The notes beneath the pieces were generated by a model, which worked only from the letters and a program-made list of their open reading frames with translations, made no database searches and was not told the origin of the DNA. A program made the position numbers and the translations under genes. From UHGV virus genome UHGV-0081829: a stretch of 40,614 nucleotides of DNA; one strand, written 5' to 3'. This document shows positions 2,988-9,322 of this stretch, one piece after another; within the stretch, counting starts at the first letter, position 1; every line of letters starts with the position of its first letter. This stretch comes from a virus.

Positions 2988-3126
2988 ATATCACCTTAAA
3001 TAGTGGTTTGCGGTAGTAAAGATTGCGCCTGTCTTTTAACCACATCAGGCTCGGTGGTTCCTTCACTTTCCACAGTCAAAGGAAATGGGTAGACTGTTGT
3101 TTCCACAGTCAAAAGAAGGAGTTCAC

Positions 3127-3381
3127 ATGTCAGATGTATCTCTTGTTAAAATCATTGAGGATTTAAACGACAGAGTTTCAAAACTGAGCACTGAAAACCT
3201 CGCACTCCAGCAAGCGATCATTTCGATAGTTTCTGCTATGCCGCCTGAGCAATCATCACATGCAAAAAAGCATCTTGATGAAGTTATTAAGTTTGTTGAG
3301 AAGGAGGGTTCAGCGGCTGCTATTGAGGTGCTGGAAGTTCAGAAACCGATTTATCAAATGCTTTTCGCTCACGTGAAATAG
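3127..3381 (+). CDS. Hypothetical protein encoded antisense to the leftward early operon
   Basis: ATG at 3127 with AAGGAG 5 nt upstream (MSDVSLVK...); preceded by two 14-bp direct repeats; track ORF 3085..3381. Confidence 0.45.
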   Translation: MSDVSLVKIIEDLNDRVSKLSTENLALQQAIISIVSAMPPEQSSHAKKHLDEVIKFVEKEGSAAAIEVLEVQKPIYQMLFAHVK

Positions 3382-3736
3382 TTTCTGCCTGATTAATCAT
3401 TACCTGAGCCTGCTGGCGAATAGCTTCACTGGCAGGCTCTTTTGTTAAGAGTTGTGTGAAACCAGCGATAATGTTGCTGGCTAACATCTCAAACCGTTTT
3501 TTCTGAATATCTCTTGATTCTTCATCAATTGGGGGTTCAATATTGCTTAGTGCCGTTACATATACGTGAATTGCCGCTGACCGGACATCATCAGGAAGAT
3601 GTTCAAGTGTACTGGCTCTTGTTTTTACAAGTTCGATAATATTTGCCTTCTTAATATCTTCAGTTTTTTCATCAATTACTGATATAAAATTTTTTACTGA
3701 TGCTTCTAAAGAGCTTTCTAATTTACTTAAATCCAT
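3320..3736 (-). CDS. Hypothetical protein downstream of N
   Basis: ATG at 3736 (MDLSKLESS...) with GAGGT 5 nt upstream, directly after the N stop; 3' end overlaps the plus-strand gene by 62 nt. Confidence 0.45.
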   Translation of the reverse strand: MDLSKLESSLEASVKNFISVIDEKTEDIKKANIIELVKTRASTLEHLPDDVRSAAIHVYVTALSNIEPPIDEESRDIQKKRFEMLASNIIAGFTQLLTKEPASEAIRQQAQVMINQAETISRERKAFDKSVSELPAPQ

Positions 3737-3738
3737 AA

Positions 3739-4047
3739 TTACCTCGCCGTCAGTTGTTTTGATTTCCGGTAGCCTGCCGCGTAAATGGCTACGTTTGGCA
3801 GGCAAATACTTCCACTGCATTCGTCGGTATTTTGGTTACGAATGTTGCCGAGTGATATTGCTTTTTCAGAAAGGCTTAAACGCTTTCTTGGGGATTCCTG
3901 AACAGGTTCCTCACTGTCTGTGCCGAAGATAGAATCAATGATGTTGCAGATGGCATCACGCTCGATAGCCAGCTTTCTGCGCCGCTCATGACGGCGAGTT
4001 TTGGCATTTCCTGCAAATGTTGATTTTCCGTACACGATTACCGTCAT
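3739..4047 (-). CDS. N: Early antitermination protein N (P22 gene 24 type)
   Basis: Begins MTVIVYGKSTFAGNAKTRRHERRRKLAIERD with an arginine-rich motif, ends ...AAGYRKSKQLTAR, closely matching P22 gp24 as recalled; GAGGAAAA before the ATG at 4047. Confidence 0.8.
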   Translation of the reverse strand: MTVIVYGKSTFAGNAKTRRHERRRKLAIERDAICNIIDSIFGTDSEEPVQESPRKRLSLSEKAISLGNIRNQNTDECSGSICLPNVAIYAAGYRKSKQLTAR

Positions 4048-4166
4048 GATATTTTCCTCATGTGAAATGGCTTTGGTGGTGATGCGCCAGGTGCTGATCT
4101 TCTGGTTGCTGTCGTTGCAGCTGCAATTCACATCACCGCCAAACCCATCTCGTTTGGTATCTGTTT

Positions 4167-4452: not shown

Positions 4453-4483
4453 GAGGAAAAGAAAACCCGGCGCTGAGGCCGGG
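4453..4483 (-). terminator. Intrinsic terminator ending the cI cargo operon
   Basis: Stem CCCGGC/GCCGGG with a 6-nt loop (4466-4483), followed on the minus strand by TTTTCTTTT, 6 nt past the stop at 4489. Confidence 0.7.
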
Positions 4484-4488
4484 TTGTA

Positions 4489-5241
4489 TTATGCTGCAAG
4501 TCTCTTAACCCAAGTCTCTCTTTTGGAGAATGGTAGAACTTGGCTTGATTCATGGAAGAGTAAGGAGAGTTGTTGCATTTGGTCACCAATTGCTTCGCTG
4601 TCTATAACAACAAATCTGTTGTTATACTCCTCACTTGAAGCTTTAAGATCAATTAGTTTCCCAAGCAATGAGTAAGCACTATTCCAGCTTCCTCCGTGTT
4701 TCACGCTTGATGTAAAAACGTATTTAGGTATGTCGGTTTTTATTGTTACAGGGACGGTAATTTGATGTCCACTCAAGCCATATACGTTTTCACGAAGAGA
4801 AAGTGCGTCTCTAAGCTCTGTGTGATATAGATAATCAATAACCATACTTTCAAACTTTTCAGCTTGAACTGGCTGATACCAGTCTAACGACAAAGTTGAT
4901 GCGAGTATACCAGCTCTAATTATGTTCGATGTAATAGCACCGACATCCTTTTCTGTTGCCCAAGCAATGATTTCTCCTCGATCATTGAGCTCTGCGCCTT
5001 CTTTAAGCAGTAATTGTCGTATCTCATCAAGTCGTTTTTTGGTAAGCGAGATCCCTCTTGCCTCCATATTCATTAAGGCATCGCATCTGTCACTAACTAA
5101 ATACCTACCATTGACTTCACGGATAAAGGCACCGACATGCTCTCCATCATCACAGTAAGTGAATGGACTGATAATTCTCAAGGTCTTGCCCATTGGATGG
5201 CATTCGAAACCTAGTTGTGAGATCACTGTTGAGCACATCAT
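4489..5241 (-). CDS. Hypothetical 250-aa protein, third gene of the cI-downstream cargo cassette
   Basis: ATG at 5241 overlaps the upstream stop (ATGATG/TGA at 5236-5241); no family recognised; AT-rich by eye. Confidence 0.5.
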   Translation of the reverse strand: MMCSTVISQLGFECHPMGKTLRIISPFTYCDDGEHVGAFIREVNGRYLVSDRCDALMNMEARGISLTKKRLDEIRQLLLKEGAELNDRGEIIAWATEKDVGAITSNIIRAGILASTLSLDWYQPVQAEKFESMVIDYLYHTELRDALSLRENVYGLSGHQITVPVTIKTDIPKYVFTSSVKHGGSWNSAYSLLGKLIDLKASSEEYNNRFVVIDSEAIGDQMQQLSLLFHESSQVLPFSKRETWVKRLAA

Positions 5242-5795
5242 ATTCCAAACCCCATTTGCCCCGACTCATCTTCAAGTGGTAAAGGTATTCTCCCAGAGTA
5301 AGTTATGTTCAGATGTTTACAGAAGTAATTCCAATACCCTACCAGGTCATCTGGGTTTATGTCATCTTCGATTGGAAACGCTATTCTATCACTATAGTAT
5401 CCAGCTTCTTCATAGTATACATGGTAGTGAGCACCGTAAATGATATCTTGGTACTTCGGATGATCGACCTTGTAACTATTCGTGTGTTTGTCAAAGTGAT
5501 AGGTATCTACCGCGAAAACCCTCTTGTTATGATAGAAAGCAATAATATTTATTTTAGGGTAAGAAATCGGGTCATCAGGTTCTGAATCCTGATCTGGTTT
5601 CCATTTCAGTTCAAACTTTAGCCCTTGTATAGGTATACAATCCTCATCCAAGGGGATGATATGAGCTTGTAGCCACATATCAGAGCGACTTGGTTTCTGT
5701 TTCCATTTAACTCCAGAAAAGTTAACTATTTTTTTACAATAAAGTACTTTATCAACTTCTATTTGGCTTGGCTGATAATCATCTATTTTTGCCAA
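5238..5795 (-). CDS. Hypothetical 185-aa protein, second gene of the cargo cassette (start uncertain: TTG at 5795 or ATG at 5678)
   Basis: Track ORF starts on TTG; first in-frame ATG is at 5678; rich in Tyr/His/Asp/Pro (..YGAHYHVYYEEAGYY..); no family recognised. Confidence 0.45.
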   Translation of the reverse strand: MAKIDDYQPSQIEVDKVLYCKKIVNFSGVKWKQKPSRSDMWLQAHIIPLDEDCIPIQGLKFELKWKPDQDSEPDDPISYPKINIIAFYHNKRVFAVDTYHFDKHTNSYKVDHPKYQDIIYGAHYHVYYEEAGYYSDRIAFPIEDDINPDDLVGYWNYFCKHLNITYSGRIPLPLEDESGQMGFGI

Positions 5796-5854
5796 TGTTT
5801 ACCGCCCTGTAAATTGTAGATAAAAGAGGTTTCATCACCCAAACGTCTCTTCAC

Positions 5855-6196
5855 TCATCCGAAGAAGCAGCAATCCGGGTCAGCACGCACAAGCTCAAGC
5901 GCATCGGTCAGCGAAAGCTCAGTACTGTACTGATGCCATTTCATATCCTTCCGCATCCAATAGATTTTCCATCTATCCAGAGAACGTATGTACTTGATTC
6001 TTGCTGATGGCAGGATGTTTGTTTCACCAGGATTGCCCTGCCACACGGGGCGCTGTTCACCGATATCTATCGTTTGGTCATTGATGCTATAAACAATATC
6101 CAGTTCATTGCGGATATGTTCAGGCGGCCTTATGCTTTCAATGAATTGGTGAACTTCTTTTTTTACTGCTTGATATTCAAGGTCAGTGAACGCCAT
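5855..6196 (-). CDS. Hypothetical 113-aa protein immediately downstream of cI (possibly DUF3024-like, unverified)
   Basis: AAGGAGG 5 nt before the ATG at 6196, only 9 nt after the cI stop; Trp-rich C-terminal half; flanked by a 17-bp direct repeat. Confidence 0.55.
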   Translation of the reverse strand: MAFTDLEYQAVKKEVHQFIESIRPPEHIRNELDIVYSINDQTIDIGEQRPVWQGNPGETNILPSARIKYIRSLDRWKIYWMRKDMKWHQYSTELSLTDALELVRADPDCCFFG

Positions 6197-6205
6197 CTAT
6201 CCTCC

Positions 6206-6865
6206 TTACCCAAACGTCTCTTCAGGCCATTGACTGGCGATAACCTTGCCTACAATGTTGCAGTTCTCATTGCATGGGATGATTGGAAACTGCGGGTTAA
6301 GTGGTTGCAAAAACACTTGCCCACTATCTTTGATCAGTTTTTTGAATGTGAATTCATCGCCACCAAGTCTAGCGATACAGAAATCACCAGGATCAACAGG
6401 TTGTTCAGGGTCAACCAAGATTAACATTCCATCAGGAAAACTTGGTTTCAATCCTGCCGGAGCTGTCATTGAGTTGCCTTCAACCTCAAGCCAGAATGCA
6501 GAATCACTGGCTTTTTTGGTTGTGCTTACCCATCTCTCCGCATCACCTTTGGTAAAGGTTCTAAGCTCAGGCGAGAACATCCCGGCCTGAACATGAGAAA
6601 AAACAGGGTACTCATATTGTTTTTTAACGGGGGCAGATGAGTATTCGCCAACAGGTGAAAATGTACCGTCGTGGTTGAACGAGACGTTATCAATACCAAG
6701 GTATTTAAACACCATACCAATCTCGTCAAGAGATGGATGACGAGATCCGCGCAACCAGTGACCAATTCCACCCTGCGTCATACCAAGCTCTTCAGCTAAC
6801 TTCTCTTGAGTTATGCCGAGTTCTTTCATTCTGGATCTAGCCAGTTCATACCATTTCATTTTCAT
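6206..6865 (-). CDS. cI: CI-type repressor (XRE HTH + S24 LexA-like peptidase domain)
   Basis: [26 protein letters not shown]; C-terminal GNSM and FKKL Ser/Lys dyad context; C-terminal domain resembles P22 C2; start at 6865 or 6859 (MKMKWYEL, second ATG has better AAGGA spacing). Confidence 0.85.
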
Positions 6866-6976
6866 ATCCTTATTATTACGCTCTGTACTAAAATCATCCA
6901 TGCACAAGATGTATTTTTTGTTTGCATTCCAAAAGTACATATCGTATTATTGTTTCATGGTTACTATGGAGGGCAT
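6866..6976. promoter_or_regulatory. OR/pR/pRM divergent control region between cI and cro
   Basis: 110-bp AT-rich spacer between divergent genes; GTACT (6885-6889) and AGTAC (6935-6939) half-site-like motifs; candidate pR at 6922-6950. Confidence 0.5.
6922..6950 (+). promoter_or_regulatory. Candidate pR promoter (-35 TTGCAT, 17-bp spacer, -10 TATTAT)
   Basis: TTGCAT at 6922-6927 and TATTAT at 6945-6950, about 27 nt upstream of the cro ATG; the AGTAC motif lies in the spacer. Confidence 0.45.
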
Positions 6977-7192
6977 ATGAGCAACCTACGAAAATATCGA
7001 GAGTCACTGAATATCTCTCAAACAACACTTGCTAAGGCGGTTGGATGCACACAGGGAGCTATCGGACATTGGGAATCTGGTCGTCGCTTCCCAGACCTTA
7101 AAACATGCCGTGCTCTTGTTGCGTGCCTAAACAAGTTAGGCGCAAAAGTCAGTCTTGATGACGTGTTTCCACCGGAACACAAAGCCGCTTAA
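6977..7192 (+). CDS. cro: Cro-like HTH repressor
   Basis: ATG at 6977 with GGAGGG upstream; 71 aa; HTH ISQTTLAKAVGCTQGAIGHWESG; divergent from cI. Confidence 0.7.
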   Translation: MSNLRKYRESLNISQTTLAKAVGCTQGAIGHWESGRRFPDLKTCRALVACLNKLGAKVSLDDVFPPEHKAA

Positions 7193-7301: not shown

Positions 7302-7601
7302 ATGGAACAAACAAGTTACAGCAAACTATCACAGCGTGACGTTGATCGCGCAGAAACAGATTTACTCATCAACCTGTCAACGCTTACCCAGCGCGGTCTG
7401 GCAAAGATGATTGGCTGTCATGAATCAAAGATAAGCAGAACGGACTGGAGATTTATTGCTTCGGTCTTGTGTGCTTTTGGAATGGCATCAGACATTAGCC
7501 CGATTAGCAGGGCTTTTAAGTATGCGCTTGATGGACTCACCAATAAAAAACGCCCGGTGTGCAAGACCGAGCGTTCTGAACAAATCCAGATGGATTTTTA
7601 A
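7302..7601 (+). CDS. cII: CII transcriptional activator
   Basis: 99 aa; C-terminus ...LTNKKRPVCKTERSEQIQMDF matches lambda CII (...LTNKKRPAATERSEQIQMEF) as recalled. Confidence 0.85.
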   Translation: MEQTSYSKLSQRDVDRAETDLLINLSTLTQRGLAKMIGCHESKISRTDWRFIASVLCAFGMASDISPISRAFKYALDGLTNKKRPVCKTERSEQIQMDF

Positions 7602-7622
7602 CTGCTTTCTATGGAGTTAATT

Positions 7623-8423
7623 ATGGCAAAAAAACCTACACCAGACCAGGTAAAAAAGATTCGTTCCGGCATTACCAAGAAAATACGGTTTGAGGTTTTC
7701 AAGCGCGATGGCTTCAAATGCCAGTACTGTGGGAGTTCTGCGCCAGACGTCATCCTTCATGTCGACCATATCAACCCAGTTAGCAAGGGTGGCGATAACG
7801 ACATGATGAACCTTATTACTTCTTGCGATAGTTGTAATGGCGGGAAAAGCGACAAACTGCTCAGCGATAACTCAATAATGGAAAAGCAAAGGCAGCAACT
7901 CCAGGAACTTAATACCAAGCGAGAGCAACTGGAGATGATGATCAAGTGGCGAGATGGTCTTAAGAGCCTGAAAGACGATGTTGTTGATATTGTCGCTACC
8001 AAAATTGACGACTGCATTGCACCATTTACTGTTAATGACAATGGGCGAAAATCTATCAAGAGATGGCTTCGAATATATAAGCTTGAAGAAATCCTCGATG
8101 CGATTGAGATTGCCGCAGACAAAAAACTCACCCAAGAAATAACCCATGAGCTTACTGGTGAATTCTTTGAGTACATCCCTCGCATAGCAGCGACAAAAAG
8201 AAAACCGCCAAAAGAACAAAGGATTCTATACATCAGAGGAATTCTTAAAAACCGCATATATATCAATCAAAACCATGTAATGAGTTATCTCAAGGCATGG
8301 CTTTCATACGACTTAGATCTCGATGAACTTACTGAGTTTGCGAAAACAGTACCTAACTGGACAACGTTCAAGGAGTGGGTATCTGAACGCATTCGTGAAG
8401 CTCAGGAAGAACTCCCGTACTAA
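7623..8423 (+). CDS. HNH endonuclease domain protein
   Basis: HNH signature CQYCG...HVDHINPVSKGGDNDMMNLITSCDSCN in the N-terminal third; ATG at 7623 with GGAG 6 nt upstream; track ORF 7611..8423. Confidence 0.65.
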   Translation: MAKKPTPDQVKKIRSGITKKIRFEVFKRDGFKCQYCGSSAPDVILHVDHINPVSKGGDNDMMNLITSCDSCNGGKSDKLLSDNSIMEKQRQQLQELNTKREQLEMMIKWRDGLKSLKDDVVDIVATKIDDCIAPFTVNDNGRKSIKRWLRIYKLEEILDAIEIAADKKLTQEITHELTGEFFEYIPRIAATKRKPPKEQRILYIRGILKNRIYINQNHVMSYLKAWLSYDLDLDELTEFAKTVPNWTTFKEWVSERIREAQEELPY

Positions 8424-8434
8424 AGGTGGACAAA

Positions 8435-9322
8435 ATGGCACGTTCAAGAAATATCAAACCAGGCTTTTTCACCAATGATGAATTAGCTGAGTGTTCTCCA
8501 TATGCCCGTCTCCTTTTTGCCGGGTTATGGACTATTGCTGACAAAGAAGGGCGGTTGGATGATCGCCCAAAGAAAATTAAAGCAATGGTACTGCCTTTCG
8601 ATGATGTGGACTGCAATGATCTGCTTCAGCAGCTTCATAGTCACAAATTCATCAACCGATATCAGGTAAATGGCGGCTCATATATCCAAATCAATAACTG
8701 GAAAAAGCACCAGAACCCTCACTGCAAAGAAGCAGCCAGTGAGATACCAGAACCAGTAGAGAACAATAACAGCACCATGCAAGTACAGTGCAAGGACGAT
8801 AAAGAGGAAGAGAAGGAGGATGCCGAATCACTACAAGTCATTGAAAACAATGGAGTACCAGAAAAGCACCATGCAAGTACAGTGCAAGAACCAGTAGAGA
8901 ACAGTTTAAATCCTGCTGATTCCCTTAACCTGATTCCTGATTCCCTTAACCTGATTCCTGATTCCCTTTCTAACACCCAAGCCGCTGACGCGACTTGTGA
9001 AGGGGGTGGGGCTGATGTCCATAAAATTTCAAGTCGCTATGCATTCGAAGGAAATATCGTTCGGTTAAACCACAAGGACTACGAAGCATGGAAGCGCCTG
9101 TATCCGAATATTGACCTGAATTACGAACTGGAAAGGCTGGATATCGAATTTAGCCATGAGAAGCCAAAGAACTGGTTTATCACTGCCAGCCAGAAACTCA
9201 GCTACCAGAACAAGCAGGCGTTATCCAGACCGGTACGCAAGGTTGCTAATGGACTTAAGGCTGAAAACTTTGCCACCAAAGATTACGGACAAACTGAAAT
9301 GCCTTCATGGGCGCAGGAGTGA
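8435..9322 (+). CDS. Replication initiator / replisome organizer (O-like), carries the iterons
   Basis: ATG at 8435 (MARSRNIKPGFF...) with GGTGG 5 nt upstream; sits in the lambda O position; internal direct repeats. Confidence 0.7.
   Translation: MARSRNIKPGFFTNDELAECSPYARLLFAGLWTIADKEGRLDDRPKKIKAMVLPFDDVDCNDLLQQLHSHKFINRYQVNGGSYIQINNWKKHQNPHCKEAASEIPEPVENNNSTMQVQCKDDKEEEKEDAESLQVIENNGVPEKHHASTVQEPVENSLNPADSLNLIPDSLNLIPDSLSNTQAADATCEGGGADVHKISSRYAFEGNIVRLNHKDYEAWKRLYPNIDLNYELERLDIEFSHEKPKNWFITASQKLSYQNKQALSRPVRKVANGLKAENFATKDYGQTEMPSWAQE
8750..8970 (+). repeat. Iteron-like direct repeats (candidate replication origin) inside the replication gene
   Basis: 24-bp repeat AGCACCATGCAAGTACAGTGCAAG at 8771-8794 and 8865-8888; 16-bp GAACCAGTAGAGAACA at 8750-8765 and 8888-8903; TGATTCC(CTTAACC) repeated five times at 8917-8970. 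Confidence 0.6.

Follow-up and report, generated by a model that had tools for sequence, protein, structure and literature searches.

In phage lambda the repressor operon has the order PRM-cI-rexA-rexB-terminator. In phage 933W the order is cI-L0084-L0083-stk-L0081; stk is reported to be cotranscribed with cI and its product Stk to abort infection by phage HK97 (PMC3564112). The Hex protein of phage 434 is encoded by a gene which is transcribed from PRM together with cI; it excludes phage P22 and lowers the RecA-mediated cleavage of the repressor (PMC3564112). Defence candidates have also been collected computationally. The PDC systems of PADLOC are 'guilt-by-embedding' candidates from BREX, DISARM or type I restriction-modification loci, and one of them, PDC-M24, which has 153 instances, is a cassette of two families and a candidate only. 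Here we analyse the genes behind cI in the virus genome UHGV-0081829, whose whole stretch of 40,614 nucleotides is called the window in the following. Three open reading frames (ORFs), A, B and C, follow cI on the minus strand. The initial annotation had taken them for a single three-gene cassette and for an exclusion or defence system not yet described. We find that this position in the repressor operon of a mosaic lambdoid phage is a hotspot for defence genes, and that A on the one hand and the pair B-C on the other are, with high probability, two independent modules which have been stacked.

From cI towards the terminator the order is gene A (6196..5855, 113 amino acids), which is module 1, then gene B (5795..5238, 185 amino acids, TTG start) and gene C (5241..4489, 250 amino acids), which are the first and second gene of module 2. 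We aligned the window with phage ev017 and with 933W. Gene A is an insert of about 370 bp and is bracketed by two copies of a cI 3′ end, the 16-nt direct repeat GAAGAGACGTTTGGGT. Copy 1 (6223..6208, minus strand) is the true 3′ end of cI. Copy 2 (5852..5837, minus strand) is what is left of a lambda-type cI 3′ end; it adjoins gene A and marks a mosaic junction. Downstream of copy 2 the window continues with the sequence that follows cI in ev017. Phage ev017 itself has a single copy of the repeat, which is its real cI end, and the leader of B comes directly next. In the window this B leader (5836..5796, minus strand) is a spacer common to ev017-type phages. In 933W the phage's own cI ends differently and a lambda-type cI remnant flanks L0084 on both sides. 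The 3′-end remnant CAGTGGCCTGAAGAGACGTTTGGGTAA lies there (locus L004, 3941-4000) beyond the stop of the phage's own, unrelated cI. Thus, the L0084 cassette has been transplanted with the two boundary copies.

The modules also assort independently. A scan of IMG/VR with the family of C and a scan with the family of A (DUF3024) yielded 80 viral loci each. A DUF3024 gene is present in only 5 of the C-family loci and absent from 75, and B-C stands behind A in a single A-family locus (L184) and is missing from the remaining 79. Among complete E. coli genomes, 227 carry A and 237 carry cI-B-C, and the stretch from cI to C is covered to more than 85% in no complete genome or phage record. It has to be weighed whether A, B and C could nevertheless be one system with three cooperating parts. 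The three genes do lie in one apparent transcription unit, and the order repressor-DUF3024-B-C is found in diverged form in 5 IMG/VR loci (identities of 36-37% for A, 57% for B and 73% for C) and once, in L184, in the DUF3024 scan. Occasional stacking of A with B-C is, however, expected because both modules prefer the same slot. The mutual absence in most loci and genomes, the roughly ten other cargos which A precedes, the GC content of A, which differs from that of B and C, and the recombination scar between A and B all speak against cooperating parts. A single three-gene system is in our view very improbable, and the cassette of the initial annotation has to be divided in two.

What stands behind A is highly variable. 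In the DUF3024 scan the cargo is L0083 with Stk in 28 loci, ParA-like ATPases in 6 and an RmrA-like Peptidase_M78 protein in 5; further cargos are a DUF6932 / PDC-M63A protein, PDC-S42 and a NYN-domain protein. In the A-family loci the cargo begins right at the second cI-end remnant. Individual examples of repressor-DUF3024 cargos are the RmrA-like Peptidase_M78 gene in L179 (3468-4592; PADLOC RmrA, E = 1e-17) and the genes in L177 (3401-3880), L180 (3421-4269) and L129 (3491-4348), which together with L179 represent the M78, DUF6932/PDC-M63A, PDC-S42 and NYN cargos. The second commonest cargo behind DUF3024 is a 162-amino-acid protein (MMDDRRDARRAYSD...), seen in L107 (1747-2235) and in 11 loci like it. 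Its gene begins within the cI-end remnant, and the protein has no match in Pfam or PADLOC.

The segment is a cargo hotspot of the repressor operon with the order cI, cargo, terminator and N gene. We suggest that the 3′ end of cI (...PEETFG*) serves as the left recombination boundary at which cargos are exchanged. Insertion of A would regenerate the cI-end boundary behind A and therefore a second module could follow. Both modules would then be transcribed with cI in the lysogen. By its location B-C is a defence candidate, since the same slot is elsewhere home to the kinase Stk, whose abortive-infection activity is validated, to an RmrA-like protein and to several candidates of PADLOC. That the hotspot of the window holds two candidate exclusion modules is to us somewhat more probable than the opposite.

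B-C behaves as a mobile pair. B lies directly upstream of C in all 80 C-family loci. In paired comparisons across loci the identity of C is 73, 63 and 52% as against 57, 44 and 40% for B, and the rate of nonsynonymous substitution (dN) of B is about 1.3-2 times that of C in the same loci. A repressor homologue on the same strand lies upstream of B-C in 79 loci (median gap 94 nt), and in the 80th a short helix-turn-helix (HTH) repressor-like ORF takes the position of the repressor. Clustered at 90% identity these repressors form 36 groups, and at 50% identity they form 11. For gene A a same-strand repressor is directly upstream in 76 of the 80 A-family loci, with a median gap of 63 nt. The recurrence of homologues next to repressor genes, a point raised by the initial annotation, is thus seen for both modules. 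B-C is present in a Shiga toxin (Stx) 1a phage with a 933W-type cI, in ev017, in PhiR57_1 and in E. coli Nissle 1917, and the repressor-B-C layout is also found in Aeromonas, Klebsiella, Thorsellia and Photorhabdus. The Klebsiella prophage has a short HTH repressor and YdaS/YdaT genes. In Thorsellia a 114-amino-acid ORF lies between the repressor and B, which according to hhalign is not DUF3024.

On the chromosome of Chimaeribacter arupi (L102, 4453-5759) B-C stands alone, with a phosphotransferase system (PTS)/glycosidase operon on one side and a LacI-type regulator on the other. No prophage genes are nearby. B-C is therefore self-contained, and it must have its own promoter at this site in the gap of about 570 nt. 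Such an isolated pair at a non-prophage site is also what one would expect of a toxin-antitoxin or addiction module whose task is to stabilise a prophage or chromosomal island without acting on phages directly. The compactness of the two-gene unit, the overlap of its stop and start codons, the constant co-inheritance of B and C with one partner evolving faster, and the nuclease fold in one partner would fit as well. The Pfam and NCBIfam scans, however, reveal no antitoxin-type HTH, RHH or AbrB domain in B or C. Furthermore, many toxin-antitoxin systems also defend, so that this explanation overlaps with an anti-phage role. An addiction module without such a role appears to us quite unlikely.

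The initial annotation could not place any of the three proteins in a named family. This has changed for all of them: A is DUF3024, PDC-S43 and phrog_3467, C is DUF1828 plus DUF1829-type, PDC-M24B and phrog_1960, and B is phrog_2017 (PHROGs scan). Gene C is the better characterised partner of module 2. Its N-terminal domain matches Pfam DUF1828 above the gathering threshold (E = 1e-8), and residues 2-249 align with positions 4-254 of the 256 of PADLOC PDC-M24B (E = 3.4e-10), a profile which matches 28 of 28 aligned members of the C family. C is a distant homologue of PDC-M24B. The AlphaFold model (predicted local distance difference test, pLDDT, 84) has two domains. The N-terminal DUF1828 domain has a fold like that of type III secretion chaperones, and the C-terminal domain has an alpha-beta-beta-beta-alpha-beta core, which is the PD-(D/E)xK fold of the DUF1829 type. 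The same assignment is found in Table S5 of DefensePredictor for an E. coli protein with 98% identity, where HHpred gives a probability of 99.5 for DUF1828 and 98.8 for DUF1829 of the PDDEXK clan (PMC13092281). The NCBIfam scan gave no match for C. A search of the Protein Data Bank (PDB) with the single sequence returned enteropeptidase at E = 0.7, which we regard as noise.

In the alignment of the C family H159 opens strand 2 and K173 opens strand 3 of this domain, and a conserved acidic pair is absent; T177, D198, R209, D214 and Q224 complete the set of invariant polar residues. Enzymes of the NgoMIV type have a variant site in which an acidic residue comes from the following helix. The domain of C may have such a variant site.

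Gene B is the more diverged partner. The TTG start is supported by its homologues, since all of them share the N-terminus MAK. As the initial annotation had noticed, B is rich in certain residues (Tyr 8.6%, His 4.3%, Asp 10.8% and Pro 7.0%). With Pfam DUF6978 it scores 22.0 bits, which is below the cut-off of 29.6, and the match covers the C-terminal third only; across the family 5 of 15 members match DUF6978 with a best E of 1e-4. A HMMER profile search of 1.84 billion representatives retrieved only 20 clusters for the B family. In members with 21-48% identity the residues K22, W31, R92, D97, H104, N106, G121, H123, H125, F158 and P173 are invariant or nearly so, and the pattern D..HxN..GxHxH hints at a metal site or a catalytic site. 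The AlphaFold model of B is confident, and no fold relative was found. Pfam gave no kinase domain in B and NCBIfam a chance match only (E = 0.15). The PDB search with the single sequence yielded the designed Kelch-repeat protein SAKe6AC, whose score is inflated by the repeats (each stretch has an E above 30); the family profile again found only a designed Kelch-repeat protein. We consider the single-sequence match as noise.

DefensePredictor (Science 2026, PMC13092281) lists B (WP_001062368.1) as a 'predicted novel defense gene' with log-odds of 4.9-5.4 and C (WP_000968518.1 / WP_000968517.1) with log-odds of 5.6-6.3, and the listed proteins are 98% identical to those of the window. The pair is a predicted candidate in two independent computational screens. 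We suggest that B-C could be a superinfection-exclusion or abortive-infection system. The chaperone-like N-terminal domain of C would have a binding partner, which could be B or else a protein of the phage, and the domain with the PD-(D/E)xK fold would bind or cut nucleic acid. B, which evolves faster and has an invariant cluster of Asp, His and Asn residues, might be the regulatory or catalytic partner.

Several points weigh against this proposal. In the family alignment of C no canonical D...(D/E)xK residues are evident on strand 2 or strand 3, and therefore C may not be catalytic. The statement of the initial annotation that no nuclease-like motif is present is correct as far as the canonical catalytic motif is concerned, but it overlooked the nuclease fold. 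The similarity of B to PADLOC PDC-M24A (E = 4.8e-4) comprises only residues 104-163 on positions 79-134 of the 148 of the profile and is marginal; in the family 3 of 15 members match. The cotranscription of A and B-C with cI is deduced from the layout and from 933W. That the pair is found almost without exception behind a repressor could also be a sign of a role related to lysogeny instead. B-C is absent from the DefensePredictor table of screened units, and 45% of the cloned predictions of that study were validated (PMC13092281). In the literature we found no experiment on A, B or C. Likewise, no paper was found that mentions PDC-M24, and accession searches of main texts were without result. 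A study of E. coli Nissle 1917 cloned a 'phage repressor' from an amplicon of 410 bp, which is shorter than the 696-bp cI upstream of B-C; B and C were not part of it. On balance we lean slightly towards an anti-phage function of B-C. A mechanism based on nuclease action is possible but doubtful. We would put forward with equal reserve that the two proteins B and C form an anti-phage system with a new mechanism, unrelated to any validated one and confined almost entirely to prophage repressor operons, and that DUF3024 is a repressor-coupled non-effector which duplicates the boundary and enables stacking.

Gene A is a full-length member of its family. The match to Pfam DUF3024 reaches 108.7 bits (cut-off 24.9, E = 2e-31; residues 4-113 on positions 2-112 of 112) and that to PADLOC PDC-S43 has an E of 7.2e-42 (residues 1-113 on positions 1-115 of 115). 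To L0084 of 933W the amino acid identity is 98%. NCBIfam gave no match for A. The alignment of the DUF3024 family, which extends down to 32% identity, shows an invariant MAF N-terminus, a near-invariant CF(F/W)G C-terminus and three invariant Trp residues, and no recognisable catalytic motif. A diverged DUF3024 copy is found in locus L052 (95.5 bits with Pfam DUF3024). In Stx2 II / PA-type phages (KP682389, AP005154, NC_004914 and others) the DUF3024 homologue aligns as two pieces (residues 12-112, 83% identity), and this alignment suggests a frameshifted or truncated copy. The PDB search with the sequence of A returned AvrPto at an E of 0.07 only, which is noise; the weak DM10-domain matches of the family profile in the PDB (RIB72 and EFHC2, E between 0.1 and 0.9) and a sub-threshold Pfam DM10 match of one homologue were judged uninformative. 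In the literature we found no paper mentioning DUF3024, and PDC-S43 only in a strain inventory.

Two roles come into question for gene A, that of a defence candidate which acts on its own and, as with Hex, that of a factor coupled to the repressor. The latter leads to the explanation that A, and possibly the whole region, serves the control of lysogeny rather than defence. A is always the gene nearest to the repressor in the 76 loci in which it follows one, it keeps this position at 33-37% identity (Morganella and IMG/VR phages), its ribosome-binding site overlaps the stop codon of cI, and Hex of phage 434 is a precedent (PMC3564112). On the other hand, A occurs without an adjacent repressor in prophage remnants of Rahnella and Erwinia and in 4 IMG/VR loci, and the copies on which PDC-S43 is based lie within BREX, DISARM or type I restriction-modification loci. 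Moreover, A stands behind repressors which differ in type, and this makes a single specific protein partner less likely. All in all, we regard lysogeny control in place of defence as rather unlikely.

The borders of the locus are well defined. N (3739-4131, minus strand), cro (6977-7192) and cII (7302-7601) flank the region, so that it is the slot which holds rexAB in lambda. Its description as a position for lysogen-expressed exclusion genes is borne out by 933W, where stk, which is reported to be cotranscribed with cI, lies beyond the orthologue of A (PMC3564112). The cI ORF (6940..6206, minus strand) encodes a protein with HTH_3 and Peptidase_S24 domains (Pfam) and the C-terminus ...QWPEETFG*. 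Translation of cI probably begins some 25 codons further on than 6940, close to MKMKW (window 6865-6940), because the start of cro at 6977 would otherwise leave only about 37 nt for the operator region. For the cI homologue of ev017 the RefSeq start is an intermediate ATG. At the junction of cI and A (6210..6197, minus strand) the sequence reads GGG TAA GGAGGATAG ATG. The initial annotation had placed the AAGGAGG motif 9 nt behind the cI stop. Both the motif and the distance are real, but the stop codon lies inside this Shine-Dalgarno sequence of gene A and the 9 nt separate the stop from the start of A. A and B are 59 nt apart. The overlap of the start of C with the stop of B was correctly recognised and consists of the 4 nt ATGA.

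The unit on the repressor strand ends with an intrinsic terminator (4485..4454, minus strand) 3 nt past the stop of C. Its hairpin (4485..4464) has 8 pairs, 6 of which are G-C, and is followed by a T run. Between cI and this hairpin no other terminator-like site was found on the minus strand. As had been proposed, the three genes are thus real ORFs; they share the strand of the repressor and lie between cI and a strong terminator. Promoter-like sites are at chance level (8 counted, 7.8 expected), and this also holds for the hexamers TTTACA-17-AAAAAT in the B leader. In a search for operators the flanks of cI and those of N had no 11-mer in common. The segment is also AT-rich as the initial annotation had estimated by eye. 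Its GC content is 0.406 versus 0.456 for the mean of the window, and 1.4% of equal-sized windows are equally low. The low value is due to B (0.375) and C (0.408) and not to A, which is average with 0.453.

Purifying selection acts on A, B and C. The ratio of nonsynonymous to synonymous substitution (dN/dS) is 0.07-0.15 where measurable, and elsewhere synonymous sites are saturated with a dN of 0.1-0.5. One might still suppose that the ORFs are decaying or hitch-hiking sequence without function, and the A homologue in two pieces (residues 12-112) in Stx2 II / PA-type phages, which is maybe disrupted, could be quoted for this. The low dN/dS together with synonymous sites that are saturated across genera, the sets of invariant residues kept at 21-50% identity and the confident AlphaFold models of B and C show the contrary, and the selection analysis effectively refutes this explanation.

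The phage is a mosaic. Its nearest relatives are among the Stx1a phage LC645425 and the phages Dewey, Louie and N7, and in a megablast search the 24 kb from 8000 to 32000 of the window are covered to more than 25% in no phage record. The window is a complete contig from a metagenome (ENA ERZ1742690 NODE_319). Two other contigs of 20-50 kb were collapsed with it because most of their neighbouring genes are the same. Directly after cII an ORF on the plus strand (7611-8423) codes for an HNH endonuclease of 270 amino acids (Pfam HNH, E = 1e-13). The protein is also present in LC645425, and in Dewey and Louie several annotated HNH genes lie in the matching region. The next early-right ORF (8426-9322) has no Pfam match. 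Beyond N two ORFs, 3085-3381 (plus strand) and 3320-3820 (minus strand), of 98 and 166 amino acids, partly overlap on opposite strands and are without significant Pfam match.

The locus is less novel than was claimed, because A, B and C all stand in catalogues of candidates and A has long been known as an ORF of 933W. The term 'not yet described' was an overstatement in view of the PADLOC lists and of the nearly identical B and C in DefensePredictor. What we have not found described elsewhere is the anatomy of two modules with a duplicated cI-end boundary, the near-obligate linkage of B-C to repressors of at least 11 clusters at 50% identity, the assignment of domains to C and the absence of a fold relative for B. 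The cI 3′ end as a portable left boundary shows how lambdoid phages assemble lysogen-expressed cargo. With 1.3 kb B-C is a compact unit, and it is common among prophages of Enterobacterales and Aeromonas, including those of E. coli Nissle 1917 and ATCC 25922. The pair is a cheap target for a test, and one of its partners is without known fold relative.

Among the described systems HipAD (DS-6 in DefensePredictor) has one component, the validated protein DS-6B (DUF3037 + DUF1829), which shares the C-terminal annotation of the DUF1829 type by HHpred with C. However, hhalign detects no similarity between the C family and DS-6B (probability 0.1), the N-terminal domains differ and B-C has no HipA-like kinase partner. 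PDC-M24 (FAM_00129>>FAM_00065) consists of two adjacent genes on the same strand, and their order is matched by B-C. PDC-M24 comes from within BREX, DISARM or type I restriction-modification loci, whereas the subfamily of B-C is situated behind prophage repressors. The full-length PDC-S43 / DUF3024 match in the window, gene A, lies next to the repressor, and the cargo slot behind it is variable. Hex of phage 434 is encoded by the gene directly after cI and has a dual role in lysogeny and exclusion. It is a functional precedent for gene A, although Hex is reported to have 158 amino acids and to be encoded in partial overlap with the repressor gene. With rexAB of lambda the genes A, B and C have the slot and the strand in common, from cI to the terminator before N, and they are likewise expected to be expressed in the lysogen and to be accessory rather than essential. 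RexA and RexB families did not appear in the Pfam, PADLOC, PHROGs and NCBIfam scans of A, B and C, the initial annotation had seen no transmembrane helices in the three proteins, and rexAB is one pair with different folds, whereas the window has two separate modules. Of the 933W operon, Stk and L0083 are absent from the window, which has no kinase, and only the L0084 orthologue, gene A, is present. The two phages share the junction at the cI 3′-end sequence and the repeat behind the gene, and at the place where 933W carries L0083-stk-L0081 the window carries B-C.

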